Source: Endozoicomonas numazuensis
GTDB lineage: Bacteria > Pseudomonadota > Gammaproteobacteria > Pseudomonadales > Endozoicomonadaceae
DNA: 64,000 nt
Direction of reading: 5' to 3'
NCBI RefSeq assembly: GCF_000722635.1
Contig: NZ_JOKH01000006.1
Coordinates: 214,243 to 278,242 of the forward strand
The notes under the pieces are model-generated. The model did no database searches. It was not told the DNA's origin and was given only the letters and a program-made list of their open reading frames with translations. The first letter of the stretch is position 1. Each line of letters begins with the position of its first letter. A program made the position numbers and the translations under genes. Positions 7,560 through 20,752 of the stretch are shown here, one piece after another.

Positions 7560-10274
7560 TTAGCAGGGTTTTCGTCCAAAATCCCAGCCACTTTGTGCCT
7601 GATACAGATGTTCTGTTTCAGGAACCAGGGGAAACATCTGAACATACTTTAAAGAAATTATTTCCTGTTTGAGTTGCTCTATGACAGGTAACCAGATTTC
7701 AGGAATCAGAGATCTGGCCTTTTCCCACTCATGGACTGGCAGTTGAATCTGGCTAAGCCGCCAGCGGTGGTTTGGATTTTCGTTTTCTGCCCAGGGCTTT
7801 AACTGGCCACTGTCGTCCGGCATCACCAGTACCACAGCGAGAGTTTCTACTTCATTGAGCCGGGTTGGGGTATGGATCTCTTCATCCCAGACATTGGCAG
7901 GGCCACCACTTTTCGAGGTGTAGCCCGGTTTCAGCTCAAGGCAGTTGAATTCACCTATATTTTTCCTGGATTTATCTTCCCCCTCTGCTTCAAAACTTTG
8001 CTGCTGCAGGCATTCTGGAATATCTGACTGTGCTTCATCGCCATAAACCCCCTCGATTAAACGCCGAGCATCTTCGGGCATAGCAAACCCTTGTTTTTTG
8101 AGAAGTAAACGCGCCGTCAACCAGAGCTGACCAGTGTGGAAATAAACGCTCTGGGTTCCGGGCAAGACAGACCTGAGCCATTGTTCACTATTTACTGAAT
8201 CCGGATCAGGTGAATGCAGGAACAGACAAGGCGGCGGGCGCTGGTCAATTTCATTTGTATTTAGCAGGTTCCCATGTGAATCACGGCTATGCCTCTGCAA
8301 ACGGCCTGCACGTTGAATCAGCAGATCAATAGGGGCCAGATCGGAAATCAGTTGATCAAAATCCAAGTCCAGACTTTGTTCTACTACCTGAGTAGCAATC
8401 AGCACCCGCCCTGCTCTTTGTTCTGCTCCAGATTTTTTACCAAACCGTTCCAACACATTGCCTTCAACAGTTTGCCGGTCAATCATGGCAAACCGGCTGT
8501 GAAATAAAGACAGGTTCTCAGAATCAATGCGCGGGTCATTCAAGAGTTGCTGATAGGCTGCCCGGGCATCTTTAACAGTATTGCGAATCCAACAGATACA
8601 ACGCCCCTGCGCCACTACTTGAGCAATTTGTTCAACCGCCTCTTCCGGGTTATTCACCCTTTTAACCTGAACTTTACGTTTTACGCTGTCACGGGTAGGG
8701 AGTGCCCGTTTATTAAACCCATGATCAGAGACATAGCTGACCAGCGGGTATTCTTCCGTCTCAGACAACCCAGACAATGGAAGCTCCCTGCCCTCAAGGT
8801 AAGCATCCAGCAACTCTTTGCGAAACTGAAACGGTAAGGTAGCCGACAGCAGGACGACACTGCCCCCCTGGGCAGCATGGAATTTTAACAGGGCGGTAAG
8901 GAGCTTCCGCATGTATGAGTCATAGGCATGCACTTCATCCAGTAGCAAAACCTTCCCCTTCAGCCCCAGCATCCTTAACGACTGGTGACGTGCAGGCAGC
9001 ACTGCCAGCAACGCCTGATCAATAGTGCCTATGCCGACATCAGCTAACAGTGCTTTTTTTCGGTTATCTGCTAACCATTGGTTGCAATAGGCACTGGCTG
9101 ACTGATCGCCAGAACCGTAATTATGATCATCTTCCTGCCCAGAAAGCTTCACTGATTCCTGAAACTTTTCGGATAACTGGCTGGCACCATGAGCAAGTAT
9201 CAAAGAGGGTTTAGGTTCTCCCTGAAACAGGGACTGATAACTCTTACTGAGTCGGTTATACATCCCGTTGGCTGTCGCCATAGTGGGCAAACCAACATAT
9301 AAACCTTCTGCCAGCCCCTGATTCATTAAACGATGAACCAGAACCATGGCCGCCTCTGTTTTCCCCGCGCCAGTAACATCTTCAAGAATAAATAACTGTG
9401 GACTTTGGGGAATATCTACCGTTTGTGCAAACTGCTGAAGAGGTGTCGGCTGCTCAATAAAATCGAACTGCTGTTTAATCGAAGAAAAAGGATTAATGGC
9501 TTTAGGTTGAAATTCAGCTTTTGTCAGAACTTCTTTTGCACGGGGCAGTGCCACCTTACTCCAATATTCCTGTAAAGATTGCCGGGTGCATTGGTATTTA
9601 AATACTGTTTGATCAGAACCCAACCAGTCCGCCAGGACTGCGACTCCGGCCAGTTGCCATGACGTTTTTCTGAAACGTTTTCGGCAAATTGTCTCCAGCG
9701 GAGAAAGATCAGGTAACCAATACTCAGCAGCGGCTCTGAAAAAAGCTTCGGCTGCTGGAATGTCTTCGTCAGGAACCAGAGATGTTGTTACAGCCCTTAC
9801 TAGTGGCTGTACTGGTTTCCCATGATGACCACAGACAATTTCCAGCCAGCCGTCAATATTACGCTGTGTTTTACCAACAGGGATAATATCGGTTAGTTTT
9901 TTTCGCAGCTCTTTTTGCCAGAGGCCATAGCCTAAAGAATCATGTCGAATCTGTTCATTATCAATTACAGCAAAGGGTACCAGATCATCGGATAACCCGG
10001 TCACCTTATTTTGAAAGCTCCGGGCAAATTTACCCAGATCGTGCAACATCAGACAAAAAGTGAACCATTGCTGCAACCATTCAGGCTCTACTTTTAACTG
10101 TTCAGCCAAAGATTTGCACAGTGTTTTTTGTGGGTCTAACAGACACCGTCCAACCGCAGCTACATCAAGACAATGATAAACCAGCAAGTGATAACTGTTT
10201 TTATCATCCTGATCTTTACTGGCTTTGCCCCAATAACGGTAGAAAGACATATTTCTTTCAACTCTATGTAGCAT
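7560..10274 (-). CDS. cas3: Cas3 HD nuclease / SF2 helicase (type I-E)
   Basis: 904 aa. The N-terminal HD motif is YHCLDVAAVG ... LHDLGKF. The helicase carries DEVH (LLLDEVHAYD) and a Walker A motif, GAGKTEAA. Confidence 0.95.
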   Translation of the reverse strand: MLHRVERNMSFYRYWGKASKDQDDKNSYHLLVYHCLDVAAVGRCLLDPQKTLCKSLAEQLKVEPEWLQQWFTFCLMLHDLGKFARSFQNKVTGLSDDLVPFAVIDNEQIRHDSLGYGLWQKELRKKLTDIIPVGKTQRNIDGWLEIVCGHHGKPVQPLVRAVTTSLVPDEDIPAAEAFFRAAAEYWLPDLSPLETICRKRFRKTSWQLAGVAVLADWLGSDQTVFKYQCTRQSLQEYWSKVALPRAKEVLTKAEFQPKAINPFSSIKQQFDFIEQPTPLQQFAQTVDIPQSPQLFILEDVTGAGKTEAAMVLVHRLMNQGLAEGLYVGLPTMATANGMYNRLSKSYQSLFQGEPKPSLILAHGASQLSEKFQESVKLSGQEDDHNYGSGDQSASAYCNQWLADNRKKALLADVGIGTIDQALLAVLPARHQSLRMLGLKGKVLLLDEVHAYDSYMRKLLTALLKFHAAQGGSVVLLSATLPFQFRKELLDAYLEGRELPLSGLSETEEYPLVSYVSDHGFNKRALPTRDSVKRKVQVKRVNNPEEAVEQIAQVVAQGRCICWIRNTVKDARAAYQQLLNDPRIDSENLSLFHSRFAMIDRQTVEGNVLERFGKKSGAEQRAGRVLIATQVVEQSLDLDFDQLISDLAPIDLLIQRAGRLQRHSRDSHGNLLNTNEIDQRPPPCLFLHSPDPDSVNSEQWLRSVLPGTQSVYFHTGQLWLTARLLLKKQGFAMPEDARRLIEGVYGDEAQSDIPECLQQQSFEAEGEDKSRKNIGEFNCLELKPGYTSKSGGPANVWDEEIHTPTRLNEVETLAVVLVMPDDSGQLKPWAENENPNHRWRLSQIQLPVHEWEKARSLIPEIWLPVIEQLKQEIISLKYVQMFPLVPETEHLYQAQSGWDFGRKPC

Positions 10275-10709
10275 GGAGTTGTTTATTATACGTATTTACT
10301 CTGTACACGACAGTTTTCCATGAGCTCCTGTTCCATCTTGGTTCAAAGAGGAGCGACAGTATTTTGAGAAACTCGTTAAACCCTGTTTCAGGATGCGCTG
10401 AAGGTGATCCAGCCCTGCACGAAAAAGGGTTTGCGCTTTTCACGCCCCTTAAGGGCTTGAATTTATGAATTCAGAGCAGGCTTTAATCACGAATATGTTC
10501 AGATGCTGATGGGGCACTCCACTGGAAAAATAACGACAGAGTACCAGGAAGGGCACGAGATCCGATACGAGTCTGTAGAGGCTGGGCTGAGTTTGAAAGG
10601 CTTAGAAATTTGATCGTTATTTTTCGAGTTTTTTACGATAATTTTACGACGAGCATAAAAAAGCCCACTATAAAAGCGGGCTTTTCTTCAGTGATTTCAA
10701 TCACTTATT

Positions 10710-10786
10710 TGGTAGGCGGTACTGGAGTCGAACCAGCGACCTTTACGATGTCAACGTAACGCTCTAACCAGCTGAGCTAACCGCCT
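10710..10786 (-). tRNA. tRNA-Val (anticodon GAC), CCA encoded
   Basis: The minus-strand sequence AGGCGGT-TA-GCTC-AGCTGGTTA-GAGC-G-TTACG-TTGACAT-CGTAA-AGGTC-GCTGG-TTCGACT-CCAGT-ACCGCCT-A-CCA folds into a perfect cloverleaf with a 7-bp acceptor stem, U33 and A37. Confidence 0.92.
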
Positions 10787-10915
10787 GAAGTTGCTGCGTA
10801 TATTATCAACGCAGCTGAAAAATGCAAGCCCCGATTCCTGATTAATCTAAAAGAAAATCAAACGTTTAGAAGAAAAGACCAGTACTATCGTTTGTACTTA
10901 CATTCTGAACAAGCA

Positions 10916-11512
10916 TCATCGTACGGGTTTCTTAAACACCAGACAGCGATTGTTGGCGGGCATAGCAATATCCTGAAGGAGCGACAATCCAACCCTGCCT
11001 GCCAACCTTTCTATTGCTTCGAAATCACGAATAGCACTGTTGGGGTCTTGCTGTTTCAGCCATTCATCAAATCGGGCATTACTTTCACTGGAATACTGCC
11101 CCTGATAGTTAAAAGGCCCGTAGAGACAAACCAGACCACCGTCCAGTAACACTCTGCCAATCCCTGCAAAAAGCTTCTCAACTTCCTTCCAACTCATAAT
11201 GTGCAGAGTATTTGCCGTAAAAATATTGTCTGCCTGCTGGATGGGCCAATCTGAATTAACATCCAGCTCCAGTGGTGGAAAATAGTTACTCAAGCCACTG
11301 GCCTGCCGTCTTGCTTCAATCACTGCTAAATGCTCAGCCCTGTCAGTGGGCTGCCAATGAATAGCTGGCATAGAAGAAGCAAAGAATTCAGCGTGCTGAC
11401 CAGTGCCGCTGCCAATCTCCACGACACTGACAGCTTTTTCAAAGAGAGGTCGAATCACTTCCAGAATGGGCTGTTTGTTTTTTTCACAGGCTTCTGAGAA
11501 AGGTAAACTCAT
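10916..11512 (-). CDS. Class I SAM-dependent methyltransferase (DUF938-like)
   Basis: 198 aa with [15 protein letters not shown] (a glycine-rich SAM-binding motif I). Confidence 0.7.
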
Positions 11513-13515
11513 TTTAATACCCGATCCCTGAGTCTGGCGACCTGATCACGGACGGCTGCCGCTTCTTCAAACTCCAGATTCTGAGCATGTTGCATCATCT
11601 GATCTTCCAGTTTCTTGATCTCTTTAGCCAGTTCGTGTGCGGACATTTCTCGATGATACTCTGCTTTTGGCTCAGCCACTTTCCTGCCAGACTGCCCTTT
11701 CTTCTTACCCGGAATGACAGCGCCTTCAAGAATATCTGCCACAGATTTGTGAATACTCCTGGGAGTAATACCGTGCTCTTCGTTATAGGCCAGTTGCTTC
11801 GTGCGACGACGATCGGTTTCATCCATAGCCCTCTGCATCGAACCGGTAACCTTGTCGGCATACAGAATAGCCCGGCCGTTTACATTACGGGCTGCCCGGC
11901 CAATCGTCTGGATCAGCGAGCGTTCGGAACGCAGGAAACCTTCTTTATCGGCATCCAGTATCGCGACCAGGGAGACTTCTGGCATATCCAGACCTTCCCT
12001 CAGCAGGTTGATCCCTACCAGCACATCAAAAGCGCCTATCCTCAAATCCCGGATAATTTCTACCCTTTCTACTGTATCAATGCCTGAATGCAGGTAACGA
12101 CAGCGCACACCATTTTCATGAAGATAATCGGTCAGATCTTCTGCCATGCGTTTGGTCAGGGTTGTGACCAGAACCCTGTCGCCTTTAGCGACCGTTTTAT
12201 TGAGTTCGGTAAACAGATCATCAACCTGTGTCGTGGCAGGACGAATTTCAATCTGCGGATCGATAAGTCCAGTAGGCCTTACCACCTGATCAACAATCTG
12301 CCCCTGGTGCTCGGCTTCATAAGGGCCGGGGGTTGCGGAGACAAAAATAGTTTGTGGTCGTCGTCCTTCCCACTCTTCAAACTTCATAGGCCGGTTATCA
12401 AGGGCAGAAGGCAGCCTGAAACCATACTCAACCAGCGTTTCTTTGCGTGACCGGTCTCCTTTATACATGCCTCCCACCTGAGGCACGGTGACGTGAGATT
12501 CGTCGATGACACACAGTGCATTATCAGGAATATAATCAAACAACGTAGGAGGCGCTTCGCCGGGTGTTGCGCCCGACAAATAGCGGGAATAGTTTTCTAT
12601 GCCGTTGCAATAGCCCAGCTCCAGCATCATTTCCACATCGTACCTTACTCTTTGCTCTAACCTTTGAGCTTCCACCAGTTTGTTGTTGTTCCTGAGTACC
12701 TCCAGACGCTCTGACAGCTCTTCCTTGATGGCATCTGTAGCTTCGATGATGGTCTGGCGAGGGGTTACATAGTGTGTTTTGGGGTAAATCGTGACTCTGG
12801 GCATTTTTCTCAGCACTTCACCCGTCAACGGGGCAAATTCACTGATCTCTTCGACTTCCTCATCAAACAGCTCCAGCCTGATGGCTTCTTTTTCAGATTC
12901 CGCCGGAAAAATATCAATAACATCACCACGCACCCGGTAGGTCGCCCTTTTCAATTCCGTGTCATTGCGGGTGTATTGCAACTCAGCCAGTCGACGCAAA
13001 ACTTCTCGCTGATCGATCATTTCACCCCGGGAGATGTGCAGCATCATTTTCAGATAAGACTTGGGATCACCCAGACCGTAAATCGCTGAAACCGTTGCTA
13101 CGATAATGGCATCTTCCCTTTCCATTAACGCCTTGGTGGCAGAAAGCCTCATCTGCTCAATGTGCTCATTGACCGAAGCATCTTTCTCTATAAAGGTATC
13201 TGAGCTGGGAACATAGGCTTCTGGCTGATAGTAGTCGTAATAGGAGACAAAGTACTCCACCGCATTGTCAGGAAAGAACTCTTTGAATTCGCCATATAAT
13301 TGCGCCGCCAGGGTCTTGTTATGAGCCATAACAATCGTGGGTCTTTGCAGCTTTTCGATCACGTTAGCAATGGTGAAGGTTTTCCCCGAACCGGTCACCC
13401 CCAGCAGGGTTTGGCAAGCCAGCCCCGAATTAATGCCCATCAGCAGCTTCTCTATGGCTTCGGGCTGATCCCCTGAAGGTTGAAACTTCGATGATACCTT
13501 GAATGTCTTTCCCAT
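11509..13515 (-). CDS. uvrB: Excinuclease ABC subunit B
   Basis: 668 aa. [16 protein letters not shown] ... [15 protein letters not shown], a UvrB-length protein with the characteristic C-terminal UvrB/UvrC interaction region. Confidence 0.95.
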
Positions 13516-13823
13516 ATATGTCCACTGGCAAAAGCCGCTGAGAGGGTCTTGAATCTATTGCTGATTATAAACAGCACCGGACAGGAAATGCAGCCGGGCA
13601 TAACGTTTCGGGCAAGATACCGGAACACTTCGGGGACGAATCAGCCTGTAAACGGATAAAAAGCTTCAGGTGAAACCTATAACTGAGCAGCCCTTTACTA
13701 CCCGTATTCGAGGCATTTTGATAATGACTTCGATAGATAAATCAGTGCGATCAAACCAATGCCAGTCGCCACGGTGACAACGGGCAAGGCTGTAGCATAA
13801 GGAATCCAAAGGCTCCCCTCTCA

Positions 13824-15017
13824 TTACCCTTTAACATTGACCACCTGTCTCAGGGTATGAACTACTTCCAGCAGATCGGTCTGGAGATCCATTACCCGAT
13901 CGATGTTTTTGTAAGCAGCCGGTATTTCATCGATAACGCCTTTATCTTTACGACATTCGATGCCTTCTGTCTGCTCACGCAGGTCCTTCTGGGTAAACGA
14001 GTTTCTGGCAGCGGTTCTGGACATGGTTCGTCCTGCACCATGGGCACAGCTACAGAATGATTCGGCATTCCCCTTGCCACGAATGATGTAGGAGCGAGCG
14101 CCCATGGAACCAGGAATAATACCCAGATCCCCTTCCCTGGCACGGATAGCGCCTTTTCGGGTCACCCAGACTCGGTCACCGTCGTGGATTTCACGCTCCA
14201 CAAAGTTATGGTGACAGTTGATGGCCTCACGAGTCACCGAAAACTTCTTGAGACGATGCTTCAATGATCGCAGTACGGCATTCATCATGTGCTCACGATT
14301 CTGCATGGCATAATCCTGAGCCCAGGCGACCGCTTCCACATAATCATCAAAGTATTCGCTACCCTCTTTCAGATAACCCAGCTCTTTATCCGGAAGATGG
14401 ATCTGGTGTCGCTCCATTTCCCTTCTTGCCAGACGAATAAAGTACTGACCAATCATATTGCCGATGCCACGACTGCCGGAATGCAACATCACCCAGACAT
14501 CGTCGTTTTCATCAAGACAGAGCTCGATAAAGTGGTTTCCTGAACCCAGGGTTCCCAGCTGACTGGCAAACTTTCGAGCATTACCGTGTCGGGAGATACC
14601 CGAATGCTTTTCCAGAATATGACTGAGCCTCATGGCCAGTGCTGAACCACCGGCCAGCTGCTCATTTTTATGGGCCCCACCCGCTCCCAGCGGGATGGTT
14701 CTCTCAATGTCATTCCGGATCTGATACAAGTTATCCGGCAGGTCATGCGCTTTCAGTGAAAGCCTGACGGCATTCATCCCGCAACCAATATCCACACCCA
14801 CAGCAGCGGGAATAATGGCATCGGTTGTAGCGATGACCGAACCCACAGTTGCACCCCGGCCCAGGTGGATATCCGGCATGCCGGCAACATGTTTGTATAT
14901 AAACGGCAGGCTGGCCACCCGACGCATCTGCGCCAGGGCTTCATGCTGTACCTCATCGGTCCAGATCTTAACCGGTTTTTGCTGATCCTTCGCGGCCAGC
15001 AGCGTGACTACAGGCAT
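13824..15017 (-). CDS. rtcB: RtcB RNA 3'-phosphate/2',3'-cyclic-phosphate to 5'-OH ligase
   Basis: 397 aa. HLGRGATVGSVIAT ... VGVDIGCGM ... GSGNHFIELC ... HNF are RtcB signature motifs. Confidence 0.93.
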   Translation of the reverse strand: MPVVTLLAAKDQQKPVKIWTDEVQHEALAQMRRVASLPFIYKHVAGMPDIHLGRGATVGSVIATTDAIIPAAVGVDIGCGMNAVRLSLKAHDLPDNLYQIRNDIERTIPLGAGGAHKNEQLAGGSALAMRLSHILEKHSGISRHGNARKFASQLGTLGSGNHFIELCLDENDDVWVMLHSGSRGIGNMIGQYFIRLARREMERHQIHLPDKELGYLKEGSEYFDDYVEAVAWAQDYAMQNREHMMNAVLRSLKHRLKKFSVTREAINCHHNFVEREIHDGDRVWVTRKGAIRAREGDLGIIPGSMGARSYIIRGKGNAESFCSCAHGAGRTMSRTAARNSFTQKDLREQTEGIECRKDKGVIDEIPAAYKNIDRVMDLQTDLLEVVHTLRQVVNVKG

Positions 15018-15850
15018 AATTGCTTTCCTTTTGCTGCCTCCCCTGTTTCAGGCCGGTCATGAACCCAGGCTTTAAACAGGGGATTTAAACGGTCTTCCTG
15101 TTCTTTATGAGCGGGTATCATCAAGGATTTTTCACTGCTTCCCAGTCGCTCCAGCTCTTTGACAAGAAATTCATTAATCGGGGCTATCGGGGTGGAATAG
15201 TCTGCCTCCAGAGAAGCTCTCTTCTTCTTGAGCAGCGCTTCTATAGAAGCCATCAATCCACCTTCCGACAACAAGCCCCTGGCCAGGGTTTCAAAATCCA
15301 GTGGCGGTATGGTGTAGTATGTTTCTATCCATTTCATACACAACACTGGCCTCAATACATAGAAGTATTTCTTTAGTCGAACCCTGTCACCTTTCAGGTA
15401 ATCCCGAAAATTACCATTAGCCATATGGAGATAGTGATAAAAGCCGGCTCTGGGCGAATAGTATTTATCCAGTACCCTGGTCATTGAGCTTCTGAAACTA
15501 CTGACCTCTTTGTAGACATAATCAGAATTCAGCCACTCCACCAGCGATGGATTGGACTTTTTCATCAGTTTGAGCGCCTTGCGAAGGTCCCAACCACTGA
15601 CATCCAACTCATCGGTGATCGGCTTCTCGATCACATCTCGCTTATGTTCGACATTGATCGTCAGATACCAGTCTGCGGGCCTGACATACAGGAATCGAAC
15701 ATCGTAATCGCTGTCTGGGGAAGCAAAACCCCAGGCCCGGCTTCCGGATTCACAGGCGTATAGCACTCGAACATTATGTTCTTTTTCTATGAGTGCAAGC
15801 TCTTCCAGAACTCTGTTTTTCATAGCTTTCATTGGATGACTCCTACCCAA
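15008..15850 (-). CDS. Minimal nucleotidyltransferase (Pol-beta superfamily, COG3541/PF10127-like) associated with RtcB operons
   Basis: YACESGSRAWGFASPDSDYDVRFLY is the GS-x9-DxD nucleotidyltransferase motif. It overlaps the rtcB start by 10 bp, implying co-transcription. Confidence 0.75.
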   Translation of the reverse strand: MGRSHPMKAMKNRVLEELALIEKEHNVRVLYACESGSRAWGFASPDSDYDVRFLYVRPADWYLTINVEHKRDVIEKPITDELDVSGWDLRKALKLMKKSNPSLVEWLNSDYVYKEVSSFRSSMTRVLDKYYSPRAGFYHYLHMANGNFRDYLKGDRVRLKKYFYVLRPVLCMKWIETYYTIPPLDFETLARGLLSEGGLMASIEALLKKKRASLEADYSTPIAPINEFLVKELERLGSSEKSLMIPAHKEQEDRLNPLFKAWVHDRPETGEAAKGKQLCL

Positions 15851-15854
15851 CCTT

Positions 15855-17030
15855 TCAACCCAGCCTGACGGTCTGTTTCATCAACTGGTCGATGCCACCG
15901 TAAACATTCAGGTTCTGAACTTTTTCAGACACCTTTTCCAAAGCTTCCAGCTCTTTTAACCGGAGCAGAATGGCGTTGTTCTCCATCATTTTCGCGGTAT
16001 TGTGCAGACTCCGGGTCGCTGCAGTTTCTTCCCTTCTCTTAATCACGTTCGCTTCAGCCGCTTTCTGGGCTTCAACCACCCGGTTGAGAATCGTCCTGAT
16101 CTCGCCGGGCAGGACAATATCCTTCACACCCACCCGCTCCAGCCGGATGCCTTCTGCCTCCAACTCTGCGACCACCTGATCTTTGACCGTGGTATTAATG
16201 TGCAGTTTGTCTTCCAGAAGCTGATCAAGTGTTCTTGTGCCTACCGCTTCACGCAGAGCTAATTGCAAAGCCCGGTAAGCAAATGCTTCGTGATCGGACT
16301 GACTTTCAGCCACCTGTCGTGCATCAACAATTCTCAAGCCCGCTGTCAGGTTGACCCGGATAGATACCCGATCTTTGGTCAGAATTTCCTGCCCTGACAC
16401 TTCCAGGGTTTTCTGACGCAGATCCAGCAGTTTGACTTCCATCTCATGATTGATCTGCCAGAAACCATAAAGACCTGCCTTCAACTCCTGCTGCAGAACA
16501 CCATCGACATACAGCATGCCTATGTGGCCTGCGGGGACCACAGATTCCAGAACAGGTACCTGCAAGCGACTACCGGGCTCCACCAGTAACCTTTGAGATT
16601 GATTGACGTTTCTGAGCCTGATTTCATTCAGTAAAGAGCGATCCACTTCCAAACCTTCTGAAAGCGACACCTTTTTTAACTCCAGTTTTCCGGCTTTTTT
16701 CCATACCAGAAGCGTGCCACCGGGAAAGGCAATGCCCTGCAGAACATCGTTGTGGTACAGCAGCCCTACTTCATTTTTGTCGACTCTCCATTCATGGAGC
16801 AGTTCGGCAATTTCCTGGTGATCCCGCACCATTTGCAGCGCACTGGGATCATCAAAGTAGAGATCATTGCTATCAAAGCTGTTGATCTCCAATGTGCAGA
16901 GTCTGCCGTGAACATGATGACGACCAGCCGACAGAACCTTTTCAAATTTTTTATTGCGATACAGTAAGGCCACTTCATTCTCGGCCACGGTAATCTGTTT
17001 GCCGAGCCAGGTGTTTTCTATAACTGCCAT
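15855..17030 (-). CDS. SPFH/band-7 (stomatin/prohibitin-like) domain protein. It is the first ORF of the rtcB operon.
   Basis: EAFAYRALQLALREAVGTRTLDQLLEDKL ... ILNRVVEAQKAAEANVIKRREETAA is a typical band-7 core followed by a coiled coil. The start is chosen at MAVIEN because GGAGG lies 8 nt upstream. The ORF track instead extends the start to 17084. Confidence 0.8.
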   Translation of the reverse strand: MAVIENTWLGKQITVAENEVALLYRNKKFEKVLSAGRHHVHGRLCTLEINSFDSNDLYFDDPSALQMVRDHQEIAELLHEWRVDKNEVGLLYHNDVLQGIAFPGGTLLVWKKAGKLELKKVSLSEGLEVDRSLLNEIRLRNVNQSQRLLVEPGSRLQVPVLESVVPAGHIGMLYVDGVLQQELKAGLYGFWQINHEMEVKLLDLRQKTLEVSGQEILTKDRVSIRVNLTAGLRIVDARQVAESQSDHEAFAYRALQLALREAVGTRTLDQLLEDKLHINTTVKDQVVAELEAEGIRLERVGVKDIVLPGEIRTILNRVVEAQKAAEANVIKRREETAATRSLHNTAKMMENNAILLRLKELEALEKVSEKVQNLNVYGGIDQLMKQTVRLG

Positions 17031-17225
17031 TTTCATTACCTCCAGCAGTTTGTTTTTTATCGAGAATAAACAGGGGCAACCCACTTGCCAGACATCAGCC
17101 TGCTCCGGGGTAAACTATCGGGAACCTTTCGGTTTGCGACGCATCATGCCGGAGCTGCAGACACCACACAGAGGTCGGTGCAGCTGTTAATTCATTAGTT
17201 TTTTGAGCAGGACATGCCTGCGAAT

Positions 17226-17297
17226 CATGGGTTACGTAGCGGGACTCGAACCCGCAACACGAGAAATAATTCCCTGCTATACCATTTAGCTATACGT
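17226..17297 (-). ncRNA. tRNA-like RNA (72 nt) with a complete acceptor, D and T arms and an encoded CCA, but a 4-nt loop where the 7-nt anticodon loop should be. Candidate tRNA mimic of Y-RNA/YrlA type in the rtc operon leader.
   Basis: Minus-strand read: CTACGTA-TA-GCTA-AATGGTA-TAGC-A-GGGAA-TTAT-TTCTC-GTGTT-GCGGG-TTCGAGT-CCCGC-TACGTAA-C-CCA. Every stem pairs (one C·A at 1:72 and one G·U). It lies between a sigma-54 promoter and the SPFH gene. Confidence 0.6.
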
Positions 17298-17400
17298 AGT
17301 AGTCAGGAGTCGAACCTGAGCCCTTGGGCTTTCCCATGTCAGCGGCGGAATACGTTTTGGCAGACCACACGCACCGGAGTGTTATTCGAAACACGTCAAA
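17298..17400 (-). other. Structured 5' leader of the rtc operon containing a second tRNA T-arm-like hairpin (CTCAGG-TTCGACT-CCTGAG) and a 5'-proximal hairpin (GTGTT-TCGAAT-AACAC). It does not complete a cloverleaf by eye.
   Basis: The reverse complement of 17300-17325 contains GGCTCAGGTTCGACTCCTGAC, a GGTTCGA T-loop consensus with a 5-bp stem. The element sits immediately 5' of the tRNA-like RNA and just after the predicted transcription start. Confidence 0.4.
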
Positions 17401-17416
17401 GCTGACGGCATAGGTA

Positions 17417-17433
17417 TTTCAAGGTGCGTGCCA
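17417..17433 (-). promoter_or_regulatory. Sigma-54 (RpoN) -24/-12 promoter for the tRNA-like RNA, SPFH, NTase and rtcB operon
   Basis: The minus strand reads TGGCAC-GCACC-TTGAA, against the consensus TGGCAC-N5-TTGCW. The -12 element has TTGA instead of TTGC. It is placed ~160 bp upstream of the divergent rtcR start, as in E. coli rtcR/rtcBA. Confidence 0.55.
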
Positions 17434-17595
17434 AAAATTTAAAAACCCCAACAAAAAGATCATATCCAATTGTTTTTATTGAATTTATTTTTATCACCGT
17501 CTTTTTTGTTGAACAACCAATGAAGCCCCATGCAAACAGAATCTATTTTTTGTGATATTTTTATATCTTTTTAGATATTCATGAATTGATTCGCA

Positions 17596-19197
17596 ATGAC
17601 TAAAAAGAACGTAGTGATCAGTATCCTGGGTGTTATTAAAGACAATAAAGGCCGGGGATCAAAGCGCTGGCAGACTTGGCGCCCCAATGTCAGTCTGGTG
17701 ATGCAGGATGATTTCAAGGTTGATCGCCTGGAGCTGCTTTATGATCCGGAGTACTTCAGAATGGCCGGCAAGGTGGTGGCTGATATCCAGTCGGTATCGC
17801 CTCATACCGAAGTGGTTCTGGTTGAAGCCCCCTGGGCAGACCCTTGGGATTTTGCTGAAATTTATGGTTGGTTCGATCAATACACCCGGCACTACCCGGT
17901 TAAAACCGAGAGTGAAAACTATTTCCTGAATATCACCACCGGAACCCACGTTAATCAGATCTGTATGTTTCTGATCAGTGAGGCCCGTTTAATTCCTGCC
18001 AGCCTCCTACAGGTTTCTCCTGACTTAGACGCAGAAAACCGGGCTGTCGGCACCCTGAGAATCATCGACCTGGATCAGGCGAAATACGATGCACTGGCCA
18101 GCCGCTATCAAGAACAGGCGCAAACCGGCCAGGACTTTCTGAAGTCCGGCATTAAAACCCGAAACGCTGCATTTAATACCCTGATCGCAGAAATTGAGCA
18201 GGTAGCCATTGCTTCCTCAGACCCGATTCTGCTGGAAGGCCCCACAGGTGCGGGTAAAACTCAGTTAGCTCGAAGAATCTATGAACTGAAAGCCAGTCGA
18301 AATGATGTGATGGGCAAATTTGTATCCGTCAACTGCGCTACCTTGAGGGGTGATGGGTCTATGTCGGCCTTGTTTGGTCACAGCAAAGGGGCCTACACCG
18401 GAGCCCAGCAAAGTCGGGAAGGTTATTTGAAAAATGCCCACCAGGGGATTCTGTTCCTGGATGAAATTGGCGAGCTCGGTCTGGATGAGCAGGCCATGCT
18501 GCTGCACGCCATTGAAGAAAAGCGCTTCTACCCGGTGGGCAGTGATAAAACCGTGTTCAGTGATTTTCAACTGCTGGCAGGGACTCACCAGGATCTTCAG
18601 CAGGCGGTCATTAAAGGCACTTTCCGGGAAGATCTAATGGCCCGTATAAACATCTGGAGCTGGAAACTGCCAGGACTGACCGAACGACTGGAAGACTTTG
18701 AACCCAACCTCGATTTTGAACTGCAACAACACGCGCGACAAAAGAACAAACAGGTGCGCTTCAATAAAACGGCTCGCGCCGCTTATATGCGGTTTGCCAC
18801 CCAACCGGATAGTTCCTGGTCATCCAACTTTCGAGACCTGACGGCCAGTGTGAATCGAATGGTAACGCTGAGCGAGGGTGGTCGAATCAATGAAGAGAAC
18901 GTCAACAGAGAAATCTCTCGTTTACAGCAACGCTGGCAACCGGCCAAAAACCAGCATGACTCCTCAGTAGAATTGTCCGATTATCTGAGCGAAGAGCAAC
19001 TGACTTCAATTGATCAGTTTGATCAGTTGCAACTGGTTAATGTCATACATATATGCCGACAATGCCGCTCCATGGCAGAAGCTGGCCGCAGGTTATTTAA
19101 TGTCAGCCGATCAGAGAAAGTCAGCAGTAATGACTCTCACCGGTTAAGAAATTACCTCTCACGGTTCGGATTAACATTCAAAAACATAACTGAATAG
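17596..19197 (+). CDS. rtcR: RtcR, a sigma-54-dependent transcriptional activator with an N-terminal CARF domain
   Basis: 533 aa. MTKKNVVISILGV ... GRGSKRWQTWRPN ... DRLELLYD ... HITTGTHV parallels the E. coli RtcR CARF region. It is followed by a AAA+ module (LLEGPTGAGKTQLARRI; GAYTGA) and a C-terminal HTH. Confidence 0.92.
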   Translation: MTKKNVVISILGVIKDNKGRGSKRWQTWRPNVSLVMQDDFKVDRLELLYDPEYFRMAGKVVADIQSVSPHTEVVLVEAPWADPWDFAEIYGWFDQYTRHYPVKTESENYFLNITTGTHVNQICMFLISEARLIPASLLQVSPDLDAENRAVGTLRIIDLDQAKYDALASRYQEQAQTGQDFLKSGIKTRNAAFNTLIAEIEQVAIASSDPILLEGPTGAGKTQLARRIYELKASRNDVMGKFVSVNCATLRGDGSMSALFGHSKGAYTGAQQSREGYLKNAHQGILFLDEIGELGLDEQAMLLHAIEEKRFYPVGSDKTVFSDFQLLAGTHQDLQQAVIKGTFREDLMARINIWSWKLPGLTERLEDFEPNLDFELQQHARQKNKQVRFNKTARAAYMRFATQPDSSWSSNFRDLTASVNRMVTLSEGGRINEENVNREISRLQQRWQPAKNQHDSSVELSDYLSEEQLTSIDQFDQLQLVNVIHICRQCRSMAEAGRRLFNVSRSEKVSSNDSHRLRNYLSRFGLTFKNITE

Positions 19198-19371
19198 AAA
19201 ATGACACAAATATGAAACTTGTGTGTCGGTTTTCAGATGGCGCAGTGTACAAGCGTTGTGTATGATGCGCAGTGCTGATGCATGATTCCCTGATAAGACA
19301 GCTTGTCAACCTCGAGAAGTTCGCACAGGAATCCGTATCAGCCTGATTTCATAGGGTTTGAATAACGATTA

Positions 19372-20562
19372 ATGAGGAACATCGTGACTGGTCAACCTTC
19401 CCACCGCGTTCAGATGGTTAAGCCATCCCCCACTCTGGCAGTCACTGCCCGAGCCGCTGAACTTCGCGCTGCCGGACAAGATATTATTGGCCTGGGTGCC
19501 GGTGAACCCGACTTCGACACCCCTGATCACATCAAAGCAGCTGCAATCAAGGCCATCAACGAAGGAAAAACCAAGTACACTGCCGTTGACGGTACGGTAG
19601 AACTGAAGCAGGCCATCATTGACAAGTTTAACCGCGATAATGGTCATTCATATGCTCCAGACCAGATTCTGGTTTCCTCTGGTGGAAAGCAGAGTTTCTT
19701 CAACCTCTGTCTGGCCCTGATCGACAAGGGTGATGAAGTCGTTATTCCCGCCCCTTACTGGGTGTCCTACCCGGATATGGTGGCCATTGCCGAAGGTGTG
19801 CCTGTCATCGTCAAGGGTACTATGGAGAATCGTTTTAAACTGACTCCGGATCAACTGGAAGCAGTCATCACCCCCAAAACCAAACTGGTTGTTCTGAACA
19901 GCCCATCCAACCCATCCGGTACTGCGTACACCCGCAAAGAGCTGGAAGGTCTGGCTGCAGTTCTGCTGAAGCACCCTCATGTCATGGTCGCTACGGATGA
20001 TATGTACGAGCATATCCTCTGGAGTGACGAGCCTTTCTGCAACATCTTGATGGCCTGCCCTGAACTGTACGACAGAACTATTGTTCTGAACGGTGTTTCG
20101 AAGGCTTACTCCATGACCGGATGGCGTATTGGTTATGCCGGTGGTCCAGCCTGGCTGATCAAGAACATGAAGAAGATCCAGTCTCAGAGCACTTCAAACC
20201 CCTGCTCTATTGCCCAGGCAGCCGCGACTGAAGCGCTGGCGGGCCCACAGGATTGTGTGAAGGAAATGCTGGTAGCCTTCAAGAAGCGTCATGACTATGT
20301 CGTCGGTCGTCTGAACAAACTGCCGGGTGTTTCTACCATTGAAAGTGACGGTACCTTTTACGCTTTCCCTGATTTCAGCGAAGCCATGAAGAAGCTGGGC
20401 TTTGAAAAAGACACACAGCTGGCAGAAATGCTGCTGGAAAAAGGCGTGGCTCTGGTACCGGGTTCTGCCTTTGGTATGGAAGGCTGCATGCGTCTTTCCT
20501 ACGCTACCAGTGACAAAGCCCTGGAAAAAGCTCTGGATCGAGTGGAAAGTGCACTGATCTGA
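19372..20562 (+). CDS. Aspartate/aromatic aminotransferase (class I PLP-dependent)
   Basis: 396 aa. RVQMVKPSPTLAVTARAAELRAAGQDIIGLGAGEPDFDTP and SKAYSMTGWRIGY (PLP-lysine region). The GTG at 19384, with GAGGAA just upstream, is an alternative start. Confidence 0.9.
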   Translation: MRNIVTGQPSHRVQMVKPSPTLAVTARAAELRAAGQDIIGLGAGEPDFDTPDHIKAAAIKAINEGKTKYTAVDGTVELKQAIIDKFNRDNGHSYAPDQILVSSGGKQSFFNLCLALIDKGDEVVIPAPYWVSYPDMVAIAEGVPVIVKGTMENRFKLTPDQLEAVITPKTKLVVLNSPSNPSGTAYTRKELEGLAAVLLKHPHVMVATDDMYEHILWSDEPFCNILMACPELYDRTIVLNGVSKAYSMTGWRIGYAGGPAWLIKNMKKIQSQSTSNPCSIAQAAATEALAGPQDCVKEMLVAFKKRHDYVVGRLNKLPGVSTIESDGTFYAFPDFSEAMKKLGFEKDTQLAEMLLEKGVALVPGSAFGMEGCMRLSYATSDKALEKALDRVESALI

Positions 20563-20690
20563 TGATTTACTCAGGAGCAGTTTCCCACTGCTCCTGCCAC
20601 CTTACAATGAAAGCCCTGACCTTATTCACTTTAACACTTCTTCTGCTTTGCCCCTTTCCAACGTTGGCTAACTGGAAAGATACCGCTGAA

Positions 20691-20752
20691 TACATCGACC
20701 ATTTAGTTGCCACAGGTAAAATACATCGACCATTTAGTTGCCACAGGTAAAA
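20691..20752. repeat. Perfect 31-bp tandem duplication (tacatcgaccatttagttgccacaggtaaaa x2) at the junction with a truncated IS element
   Basis: Both copies are readable directly. The duplication truncates a small signal-peptide-bearing ORF (MKALTLFTLTLLLLCPFPTLANW...) and abuts the ISL3 fragment. Confidence 0.85.

Follow-up and report, generated by a model that had tools for sequence, protein, structure and literature searches.

A probable modular tRNA-mimicking RNA with a reduced T-arm unit precedes the Band-7, RlaP and RtcB genes of Endozoicomonas numazuensis

In a 64,000-nucleotide (nt) stretch of the Endozoicomonas numazuensis genome (contig NZ_JOKH01000006.1), referred to here as the window, a T-arm-like hairpin had been noticed within a short segment (17298-17400) immediately upstream of a tRNA-like element. 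This segment lies inside the 565-nt gap (17031-17595) between two divergent transcription units, in what is the leader of an RtcR/sigma-54-controlled operon encoding an SPFH/Band-7 protein, the nucleotidyltransferase RlaP and the RNA ligase RtcB. We consider it probable that the segment constitutes the 5' portion of a long RNA of modular build that mimics tRNA; it would be made from the RtcR/sigma-54 promoter ahead of these three genes, and its T-loop modules would serve as independent mimics of the tRNA elbow shown to a partner that recognises tRNA shape. The modules have defined structures, each of them is conserved among related loci, and they are linked to the Band-7/RtcB operon. Coordinates of the RNA features refer to the minus strand throughout and are collected in Table 1.

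As the preliminary description had stated, the segment contains a canonical T-arm with a stem of five base pairs (bp), and its signature exceeds chance: GGTTCGANTCC occurs three times in the window, namely in a tRNA-Val gene, in the tRNA mimic and in this upstream T-arm, with an expectation of 0.10 matches by shuffling and three matches reached in none of 100 shuffles. The 3-nt spacing to the tRNA mimic also held, with CUA (17302-17300) filling the gap before C17299, where the mimic starts, and so did the lack of an acceptor 3' strand belonging to this T-arm. GUAGUAG, the candidate partner for the CUACUAC that follows the T-arm, is absent from the upstream 110 nt. The remaining hairpins need to be read differently. 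The two small ones, GGGAAAGCCC (17335-17326) and GCCCAAGGGC (17329-17320), are both present in the sequence, but they overlap and are therefore mutually exclusive; relatives retain just the second, which reads A-GCC/CAAG/GGC-U (17330-17319), and GGGAAA stays single-stranded. Likewise, the GTGTT/AACAC hairpin exists as described, but it is not the 5' end of the RNA, and constitutes arm P2 of a conserved three-way junction.

Relatives were gathered as 80 genomic loci through alignment of Band-7 homologues, mainly from Gammaproteobacteria and Betaproteobacteria with a few other groups, together with one Alteromonas locus. Approximately 66 of the 82 regions upstream of the Band-7 gene contain more than one T-loop motif (two or three, with a spacing of 62-76 nt), and in many loci the tRNA-like genes called by ARAGORN come in twos or threes that abut or overlap slightly; on these motif counts, possession of a second T-loop ahead of Band-7 is the rule and not a peculiarity of the window. 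Among the T-loops that received no tRNA call from ARAGORN, a recurring unit of about 40 nt was recognised, consisting of (U)GGNAAA, a hairpin of 3-4 bp (usually with a tetraloop) and a directly abutting T-arm. The elbow of a tRNA is built by G18/G19 of the D-loop together with the T-loop, and we named the unit mini-elbow because the parts it retains are those that form this elbow; it has no acceptor stem, D-stem or anticodon arm. By analogy, we infer a tertiary contact between the GG and the T-loop within the unit.

All of these parts are found in the window upstream of the Band-7 gene: the invariant GG (GGG 17335-17333, followed by AAA), the mini hairpin AGCC-CAAG-GGCU (17330-17319), the abutting T-arm (17319-17303) with its GGTTCRANTCC loop, and the linker CUA, the T-arm stem being readable as CAGG/CCUG or UCAGG/CCUGA around the loop UUCGACU. 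The unit aligns column for column with those of three uncultured gammaproteobacterial genome bins (L030, L031 and L033). Listed as GG strand, mini hairpin, link and T-arm, the window has GGGAAA, GCC-CAAG-GGC, U and CAGG-UUCGACU-CCUG; L031 has GGGAAA, GCC-UUCG-GGC, U and GGGG-UUCGACU-CCCC; L033 has GGUAAA, GCC-UUAG-GGC, U and GGGG-UUCGACU-CCCC; and L030 has GGAAAA, GCC-CUCG-GGC, U and GGGG-UUCGAAU-CCCC.

A covariance model of the mini-elbow (R2) was built from eight seed sequences including the window, whose own score is partly circular. Strong matches to R2 (21-58 bits) were obtained in 22 other loci, seven belonging to the seed and 15 lying outside it, and the positive loci were distributed among Gammaproteobacteria, Betaproteobacteria and one Myxococcota genome bin. 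The full tRNA mimic of the window scored 12.7 bits with this model, and the T-arms of full tRNA-like units elsewhere scored at most 20 bits. In the R2 alignment, 97.7% of the cells were paired, vs 76.3% after shuffling, with hairpin pairs switching between GC and CG and among CG, AU and GC. The comparison of homologous leaders proposed in the preliminary description was thereby carried out, and it showed a conserved module in which the GG and the T-loop bases are invariant.

Furthermore, a reciprocal search was performed on metagenome and viral contigs with an exact 30-nt degenerate pattern, GGNAAAGSCNNNNGNCTNNGGTTCGANTCC, which matched 39 metagenome contigs and no viral contig. Among the 26 of these contigs with at least 700 nt of downstream sequence, 19 carry a Band-7 homologue on the same strand, 276-515 nt downstream, and five further pattern contigs have an RtcB or RtcB-like match on the same strand. 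Because the pattern alone retrieves contigs mostly with Band-7 downstream, the mini-elbow is, as far as this search reaches, specific to the Band-7/RtcB system.

Upstream of the mini-elbow, and directly after the sigma-54-type promoter, marine gammaproteobacterial loci share a conserved domain of about 85 nt that corresponds to a three-way junction. Helix P1 (6 bp) closes the domain by pairing GUCAGC (17406-17401) with GCUGAC (17343-17338), and in relatives it reads GUAGC/GCUAC, GUGAUU/GAUCAC, GUGGUU/AACCAC or UGGUUA/UAACCA. Arm P2 has a conserved GUG...CAC, and in arm P3 (17375-17347) GGUGCG faces CGUAUUCC, with GGUGCR...YGUAUNCC and a variable tip in relatives. Since MAFFT placed P1 and the mini hairpin out of register, the covariance models were built from hand-set structures, and the sequences were re-aligned with those models. 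The junction model (R1), obtained from 21 seed sequences (the window and 20 loci), matched 36 of the 81 related loci and the window, each of them once and invariably ahead of the Band-7 gene; 16 of the matches lie outside the seed, six of them (L013, L017, L022, L023, L025 and L027) being near-duplicates of seed loci. In the R1 alignment, 85.8% of the cells were paired, a share that fell to 65.9% on shuffling and to no more than 47% on sliding, and 22 of the 27 pairs change on both sides. For the leader of the window taken alone, the junction is the minimum-energy structure (-22.4 kcal/mol). No Rfam 15 family matches the junction at E <= 10. In more distant loci, a GGUGC...GYAUGCC signature was seen by eye, and R1 did not recover those loci.

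Folding of the region as one transcript, also suggested in the preliminary description, was informative in part: a 189-nt fold retained the mini hairpin, the T-arm and the cloverleaf of the tRNA mimic, but no excess stability was detected for 17420-17226 (z = -1.58 against shuffles). The whole-strand fold of 17420-17226, in which the 5' end and the mimic's D-arm are paired, was rejected in favour of the comparative structure.

The full tRNA mimic that follows the mini-elbow is a cloverleaf with a 4-nt "anticodon" loop, UUAU, and an encoded CCA (17230-17228) after the discriminator C17231. The shortness of the loop makes a decoding role very unlikely. The first pair of its acceptor stem is a C1.A72 mismatch, and C.A is also found at positions 1-72 of the Alteromonas counterpart (L001 4424-4495); the mismatch may be a family trait. 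The gene context, together with the description quoted in bioRxiv 10.1101/312249, identifies 17299-17228 evidently as the tRNA associated with band 7 (b7a-tRNA) predicted by Burroughs and Aravind (2016), as that prediction is rendered in the quotation. On the same quoted description, the two agree in being a tRNA-like RNA beside a Band-7 gene and RtcB; such an RNA stands next to the RtcB-linked Band-7 gene in the window, and likewise upstream of Band-7 in most of the 80 loci. As of 2018, this Band-7-associated tRNA-like RNA was a prediction without validation, possibly functionally redundant with YrlA (bioRxiv 10.1101/312249). The segment noticed initially differs from the b7a-tRNA in that it is not a cloverleaf, and consists of the three-way junction and the reduced T-arm module upstream of one; neither ARAGORN nor Rfam (E <= 10) returned a tRNA over 17300-17410. 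A tRNA-mimicking RNA of RtcB repair operons was already known as a prediction. What is new here is the leader with its junction, the mini-elbow and the way in which the modular layout varies; these are absent from Rfam 15 and, outside the 2016 defining paper, from the literature searched, in which no description of the junction, the mini-elbow, tandem copies or a variable module order was found.

The modules are combined differently among the relatives. Denoting the junction as L, the mini-elbow as E and a full tRNA-like unit as F, the layout L-E-F is present in the window and in eight Pseudoalteromonas loci (P. luteoviolacea group); many uncultured Gammaproteobacteria, along with other taxa, show L-F-E or F-E, frequently preceded at E by a hairpin resembling an anticodon arm; Pseudoalteromonas, Colwellia, Catenovulum and further genera have L-F-F or L-F-F-F; and two Aliiglaciecola loci, in which ARAGORN calls no tRNA-like gene, consist of L-E only. 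The three loci from Enterovibrio/Grimontia (L024, L025 and L034) possess a related reduced unit without a strong R2 score, and were classed as L-t-F-F. This free order and number suggest that the modules are independent units on a string, and the Aliiglaciecola loci argue that the mini-elbow is functional alone. In ten loci (L003, L004, L006, L007, L009, L011, L018, L019, L044 and L045) the tandem units abut or overlap by 0-3 nt, with acceptor-stem nucleotides common to neighbours, so that not all of the overlapping units can be released as separate canonical tRNAs. Two betaproteobacterial loci (L064 and L068) have GUGCC-ACCA after the first T-arm, matching a GGCAC upstream; this short acceptor-like stem with an encoded ACCA stands directly before the full mimic, in a reduced first module unlike that of the window.

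These observations bear on the two alternatives left by the preliminary description, namely a composite structured RNA or a second, degenerate mimic. The first is supported. The second proved apt insofar as the mini-elbow does represent a pared-down tRNA-like unit, in which a GG strand and a mini hairpin accompany a T-arm. Its degeneration, in the sense of a decaying and functionless leftover of a duplicated tRNA mimic, would have a plausible origin in the loss of parts, since in many relatives complete tRNA-like units stand in tandem, two or three at a time, and the mini-elbow lacks an acceptor stem and a D-stem. However, a decaying copy is not expected to recur with the same reduced design in 22 other loci, to show compensatory stem changes around an invariant GG and T-loop, to be the sole T-loop module of two Aliiglaciecola loci, or to yield an exact 30-nt pattern that retrieves 39 more contigs, mostly beside a Band-7 gene. 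We therefore regard decay as highly improbable.

A further possibility is that the T-arm belongs together with the next D-arm in a Y RNA of the YrlA type, with the permuted order of T-arm, acceptor hairpin and D-arm, which would act with Ro60/Rsr. The resemblance is genuine to some degree: the Rfam YrlA family (RF02553) aligns to 17349-17248 by joining precisely these two arms (local E = 4.5e-4), and YrlA RNAs also occur in RtcR-controlled RtcB operons, with a V hairpin before the T-arm (PMC4201824). The Salmonella operon rsr-yrlBA-rtcBA (RF02553; PMC4201824) is under RtcR/sigma-54 control as well and includes the tRNA-mimicking RNAs YrlA and YrlB, a T-arm-bearing RNA preceding a fuller tRNA-like one and a small hairpin preceding the T-arm. 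Nevertheless, the alignment reached 28.8 bits, vs a gathering threshold of 69, and is gapped where the acceptor hairpin is expected, there being no such hairpin between the T-arm and the D-arm; the D-arm in question is part of a complete cloverleaf that scores 46.4 bits as a tRNA. Other loci place the mini-elbow after the full mimic or have it alone, with no D-arm following, and the F-E locus L033 scored only 18.9 bits with the YrlA model. Moreover, no TROVE/Ro60 domain was found in any of the nine nearest genes (7560-21245; Cas3, DUF938, UvrB, RtcB, RlaP, Band_7, RtcR, an aminotransferase and a transposase fragment). The E. numazuensis locus thus differs from YrlA/YrlB in having no Ro60 gene nearby, a normal and not permuted tRNA topology, and no Ro-binding stem; the assignment to YrlA was rejected, and we hold it to be very improbable.

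The mini-elbow resembles in its design the tRNA-like domain of transfer-messenger RNA (tmRNA; RF00023), which combines a T-arm with a reduced, stem-less analogue of the D-loop: both have a canonical T-loop arm and such an analogue, and both lack an anticodon arm. The Rfam tmRNA model, however, aligns to the T-arm only, with 7.4 bits in the window and 10.3 bits in L033, far below the threshold. Unlike in tmRNA, there is no acceptor stem, mRNA-like reading frame or pseudoknots, and ARAGORN reports no tmRNA.

With respect to expression, the promoter of the leader conforms to the sigma-54 type (Table 1), and a script scan located TGGCAC-N5-TTG(A/T/G)A at the corresponding position of some 25 related loci from marine Gammaproteobacteria. 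Transcription would start near 17407, given the usual spacing from the -12 element of a sigma-54-like promoter, and P1 begins approximately 2 nt past this putative start. No sigma-70-like promoter was found in 16950-17650. A second sigma-54 promoter, TGGCAAG-N-GGATGCT, was flagged by script about 60-90 nt before the Band-7 start; it was rejected because its GG is not kept in relatives, and the sequence is the tip hairpin of a third structured domain. The order on one strand is RNA, Band_7, RlaP and RtcB, and the same layout is present in Alteromonas. The proteins encoded on either side of the leader are identical to E. numazuensis proteins, the Band-7 product sharing 100% identity with one of the slipin family. 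No match to the intergenic region was obtained in E. coli genomes.

Table 1. Features of the leader RNA and of the adjoining genes in the 64,000-nt window
Feature	Coordinates	Strand	Evidence
Sigma-54-type promoter TGGCACgcaccTTGAA	17433-17418	-	Fits the sigma-54 consensus; read by eye, then confirmed by custom script
Three-way-junction leader domain	17419-17334	-	Covariance model R1, 45.2 bits, E = 9e-13
GTGTT-TCGAAT-AACAC hairpin	17394-17379	-	Arm P2 of the three-way junction
Mini-elbow module	17345-17300	-	Covariance model R2, 52.6 bits, E = 4e-13
T-arm	5' stem UCAGG 17319-17315; loop UUCGACU 17314-17308; 3' stem CCUGA 17307-17303	-	Read from sequence
Full tRNA mimic (band 7-associated tRNA)	17299-17228	-	ARAGORN tRNA, undetermined anticodon; Rfam tRNA 46.4 bits
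Third leader domain, long imperfect hairpin	17193-17064 (tentative)	-	Closing helix GAAUUAACAG/CUGUUUAUUC read by eye
SPFH/Band-7 (slipin) protein, first gene of operon	15855-17030	-	Pfam Band_7, E = 1.2e-30
RlaP nucleotidyltransferase	15008-15850	-	Pfam RlaP, E = 4e-89
RtcB RNA ligase	13824-15017	-	Pfam RtcB, E = 9e-130
RtcR, divergent sigma-54 activator with CARF domain	17596-19197	+	Pfam RtcR, E = 2.4e-68; Sigma54_activat, E = 4.4e-47

The third domain, situated between the full mimic and the Band-7 gene, contains the hairpin GGCAA-GUGGG-UUGCC (17089-17075). In relatives, it is closed by GUUAGUAAG/CUUACUAAC, displays the tip hairpin AGC-NGGAN-GCU and ends 20-40 nt before the Band-7 ribosome-binding site. 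An RNAalifold analysis of ten relatives, aligned without the window, yielded a rod in which 33 of the 41 predicted pairs carry compensatory changes. With regard to other genes around the operon, UvrB, a DUF938 methyltransferase, the tRNA-Val (10710-10786) and a Cas3 gene are located downstream of RtcB on the same strand (7560-13515, -), and an ISL3 transposase fragment lies beyond rtcR (20823-21245, +).

Several points weigh against an elbow-displaying RNA as proposed here. Transcription, its start site, the 3' end of the RNA and any processing, such as an RNase P cut at A17300/C17299, are deduced from sequence features. The putative contact between the GG and the T-loop cannot covary, both of its sides being invariant. 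The junction was recovered by R1 in under half of the loci, the distant ones seeming diverged when judged by eye. Because the alignments behind the pair counts were fitted to the covariance models themselves, they are biased towards the modelled structure; controls by sliding and shuffling oppose an artefact, but do not amount to a formal test. Part of the anatomy may already be described in the 2016 b7a-tRNA paper. Finally, no terminator separates the RNA from the Band-7 gene, and the RNA may act in cis as a 5' untranslated region (5'UTR).

This last point leads to an alternative in which the segment is mainly a cis-acting part of the 5'UTR, and not a protein-binding tRNA decoy or scaffold. 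It could serve stability or processing, with P1 protecting the 5' end or the T-arm capping the 3' end that an RNase P cut at the first nucleotide of the tRNA mimic would leave, or it could be a sensor regulating Band-7 translation. The lack of an intrinsic terminator up to the Band-7 start codon agrees with such a role, as do the position of P1 about 2 nt from the inferred start, the short distance from the third domain to the ribosome-binding site in relatives, and the fact that RNase P cleaves in vitro the YrlA of M. smegmatis, a Y RNA that resembles tRNA and has an acceptor-like stem of 7 bp. A fixed switch, however, fits poorly with modules whose number and order vary freely; neither a terminator/antiterminator alternative nor a pairing that masks the ribosome-binding site was seen, and an exact tRNA T-loop combined with an invariant GG points to recognition of tRNA shape over a generic stabilising hairpin. 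No GC-rich hairpin with a U run behind it, as expected of an intrinsic terminator or an attenuator, was found in the segment, the sole terminator-like site in 16950-17650 being the weak one at 17089-17075. We consider a mainly cis-acting role unlikely, and it is partly compatible with the explanation we prefer.

According to that preferred explanation, a modular RNA that presents tRNA elbows, the transcript would be induced together with the repair genes, and the three-way junction would lock its 5' end into helix P1. Each T-loop module would function as an independent tRNA-elbow mimic, one RNA displaying one to three of them. The partner would be a component that recognises tRNA shape, for which the oligomeric SPFH protein, RlaP, RtcB, or tRNA-targeting nucleases decoyed by the RNA are candidates. 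RlaP is a Pol-beta-family enzyme that adds nucleotides in vitro to RNAs including cleaved tRNAs (PMC12776372), and a role as uncleavable decoy for tRNA-cleaving toxins was suggested for YrlA by Hughes et al. (PMC7790460).

The product of the first gene was modelled with AlphaFold2 (mean predicted local distance difference test, pLDDT, 78) as beta-strand repeats over roughly the first 160 residues, followed by an SPFH domain and then a long helix. Pfam recognised no domain in the first ~160 residues, and no RNA-binding fold was found in the N-terminal beta repeats of the model. A Foldseek search with the model retrieved stomatin, HflK/C and prohibitin, and the major vault protein too, the match to the rabbit protein extending over 400 alignment columns (E = 2.8e-9) and those to stomatin, HflK/C and prohibitin being stronger. 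The model hints at a soluble vault-like cage encoded beside a small RNA. On a more specific proposal, which we judge quite unlikely, the sigma-54 transcript of about 370 nt (junction, mini-elbow, mimic and rod) would be the dedicated RNA subunit of such an SPFH cage, and its elbow mimics would dock the cage to RlaP/RtcB, to broken tRNAs, or to anticodon nucleases as decoys. The likeness to the vault particle resides in the SPFH-like shoulder of the major vault protein and in the small structured RNA encoded beside the Band-7 gene; in contrast, vault RNAs are not tRNA-like, and the comparison is an analogy only. If the cage existed, the mini-elbow would be the minimal recognition unit, since it is the sole T-loop module in Aliiglaciecola, and the complex would represent a bacterial counterpart of the Ro60/Y RNA ribonucleoprotein and of the vaults of eukaryotes.

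As for experimental hosts, the rtc locus of Pseudomonas aeruginosa PA14 contains the SPFH protein PaFlo8 (PA14_60630) along with RtcA, RtcB and RtcR (PMC13086221), and may offer a genetically tractable host for the RNA. The corresponding locus of an uncultured Pseudomonas (L076) contains just one tRNA-like unit.

RtcB operons are widespread, and their bacterial substrates and cofactors are poorly understood. Our results describe the b7a-type RNA as a modular RNA, with a 5' junction, a separable T-arm/GG unit and a rod-like domain, and not as a lone tRNA look-alike. They provide targets for mutation, namely the invariant GG, the mini hairpin and helix P1, as well as two covariance models for annotating the family. 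Furthermore, the loci in which the mini-elbow is the only T-loop module suggest that what the system requires of a tRNA is its elbow and not its acceptor or anticodon end, which narrows the search for the partner.

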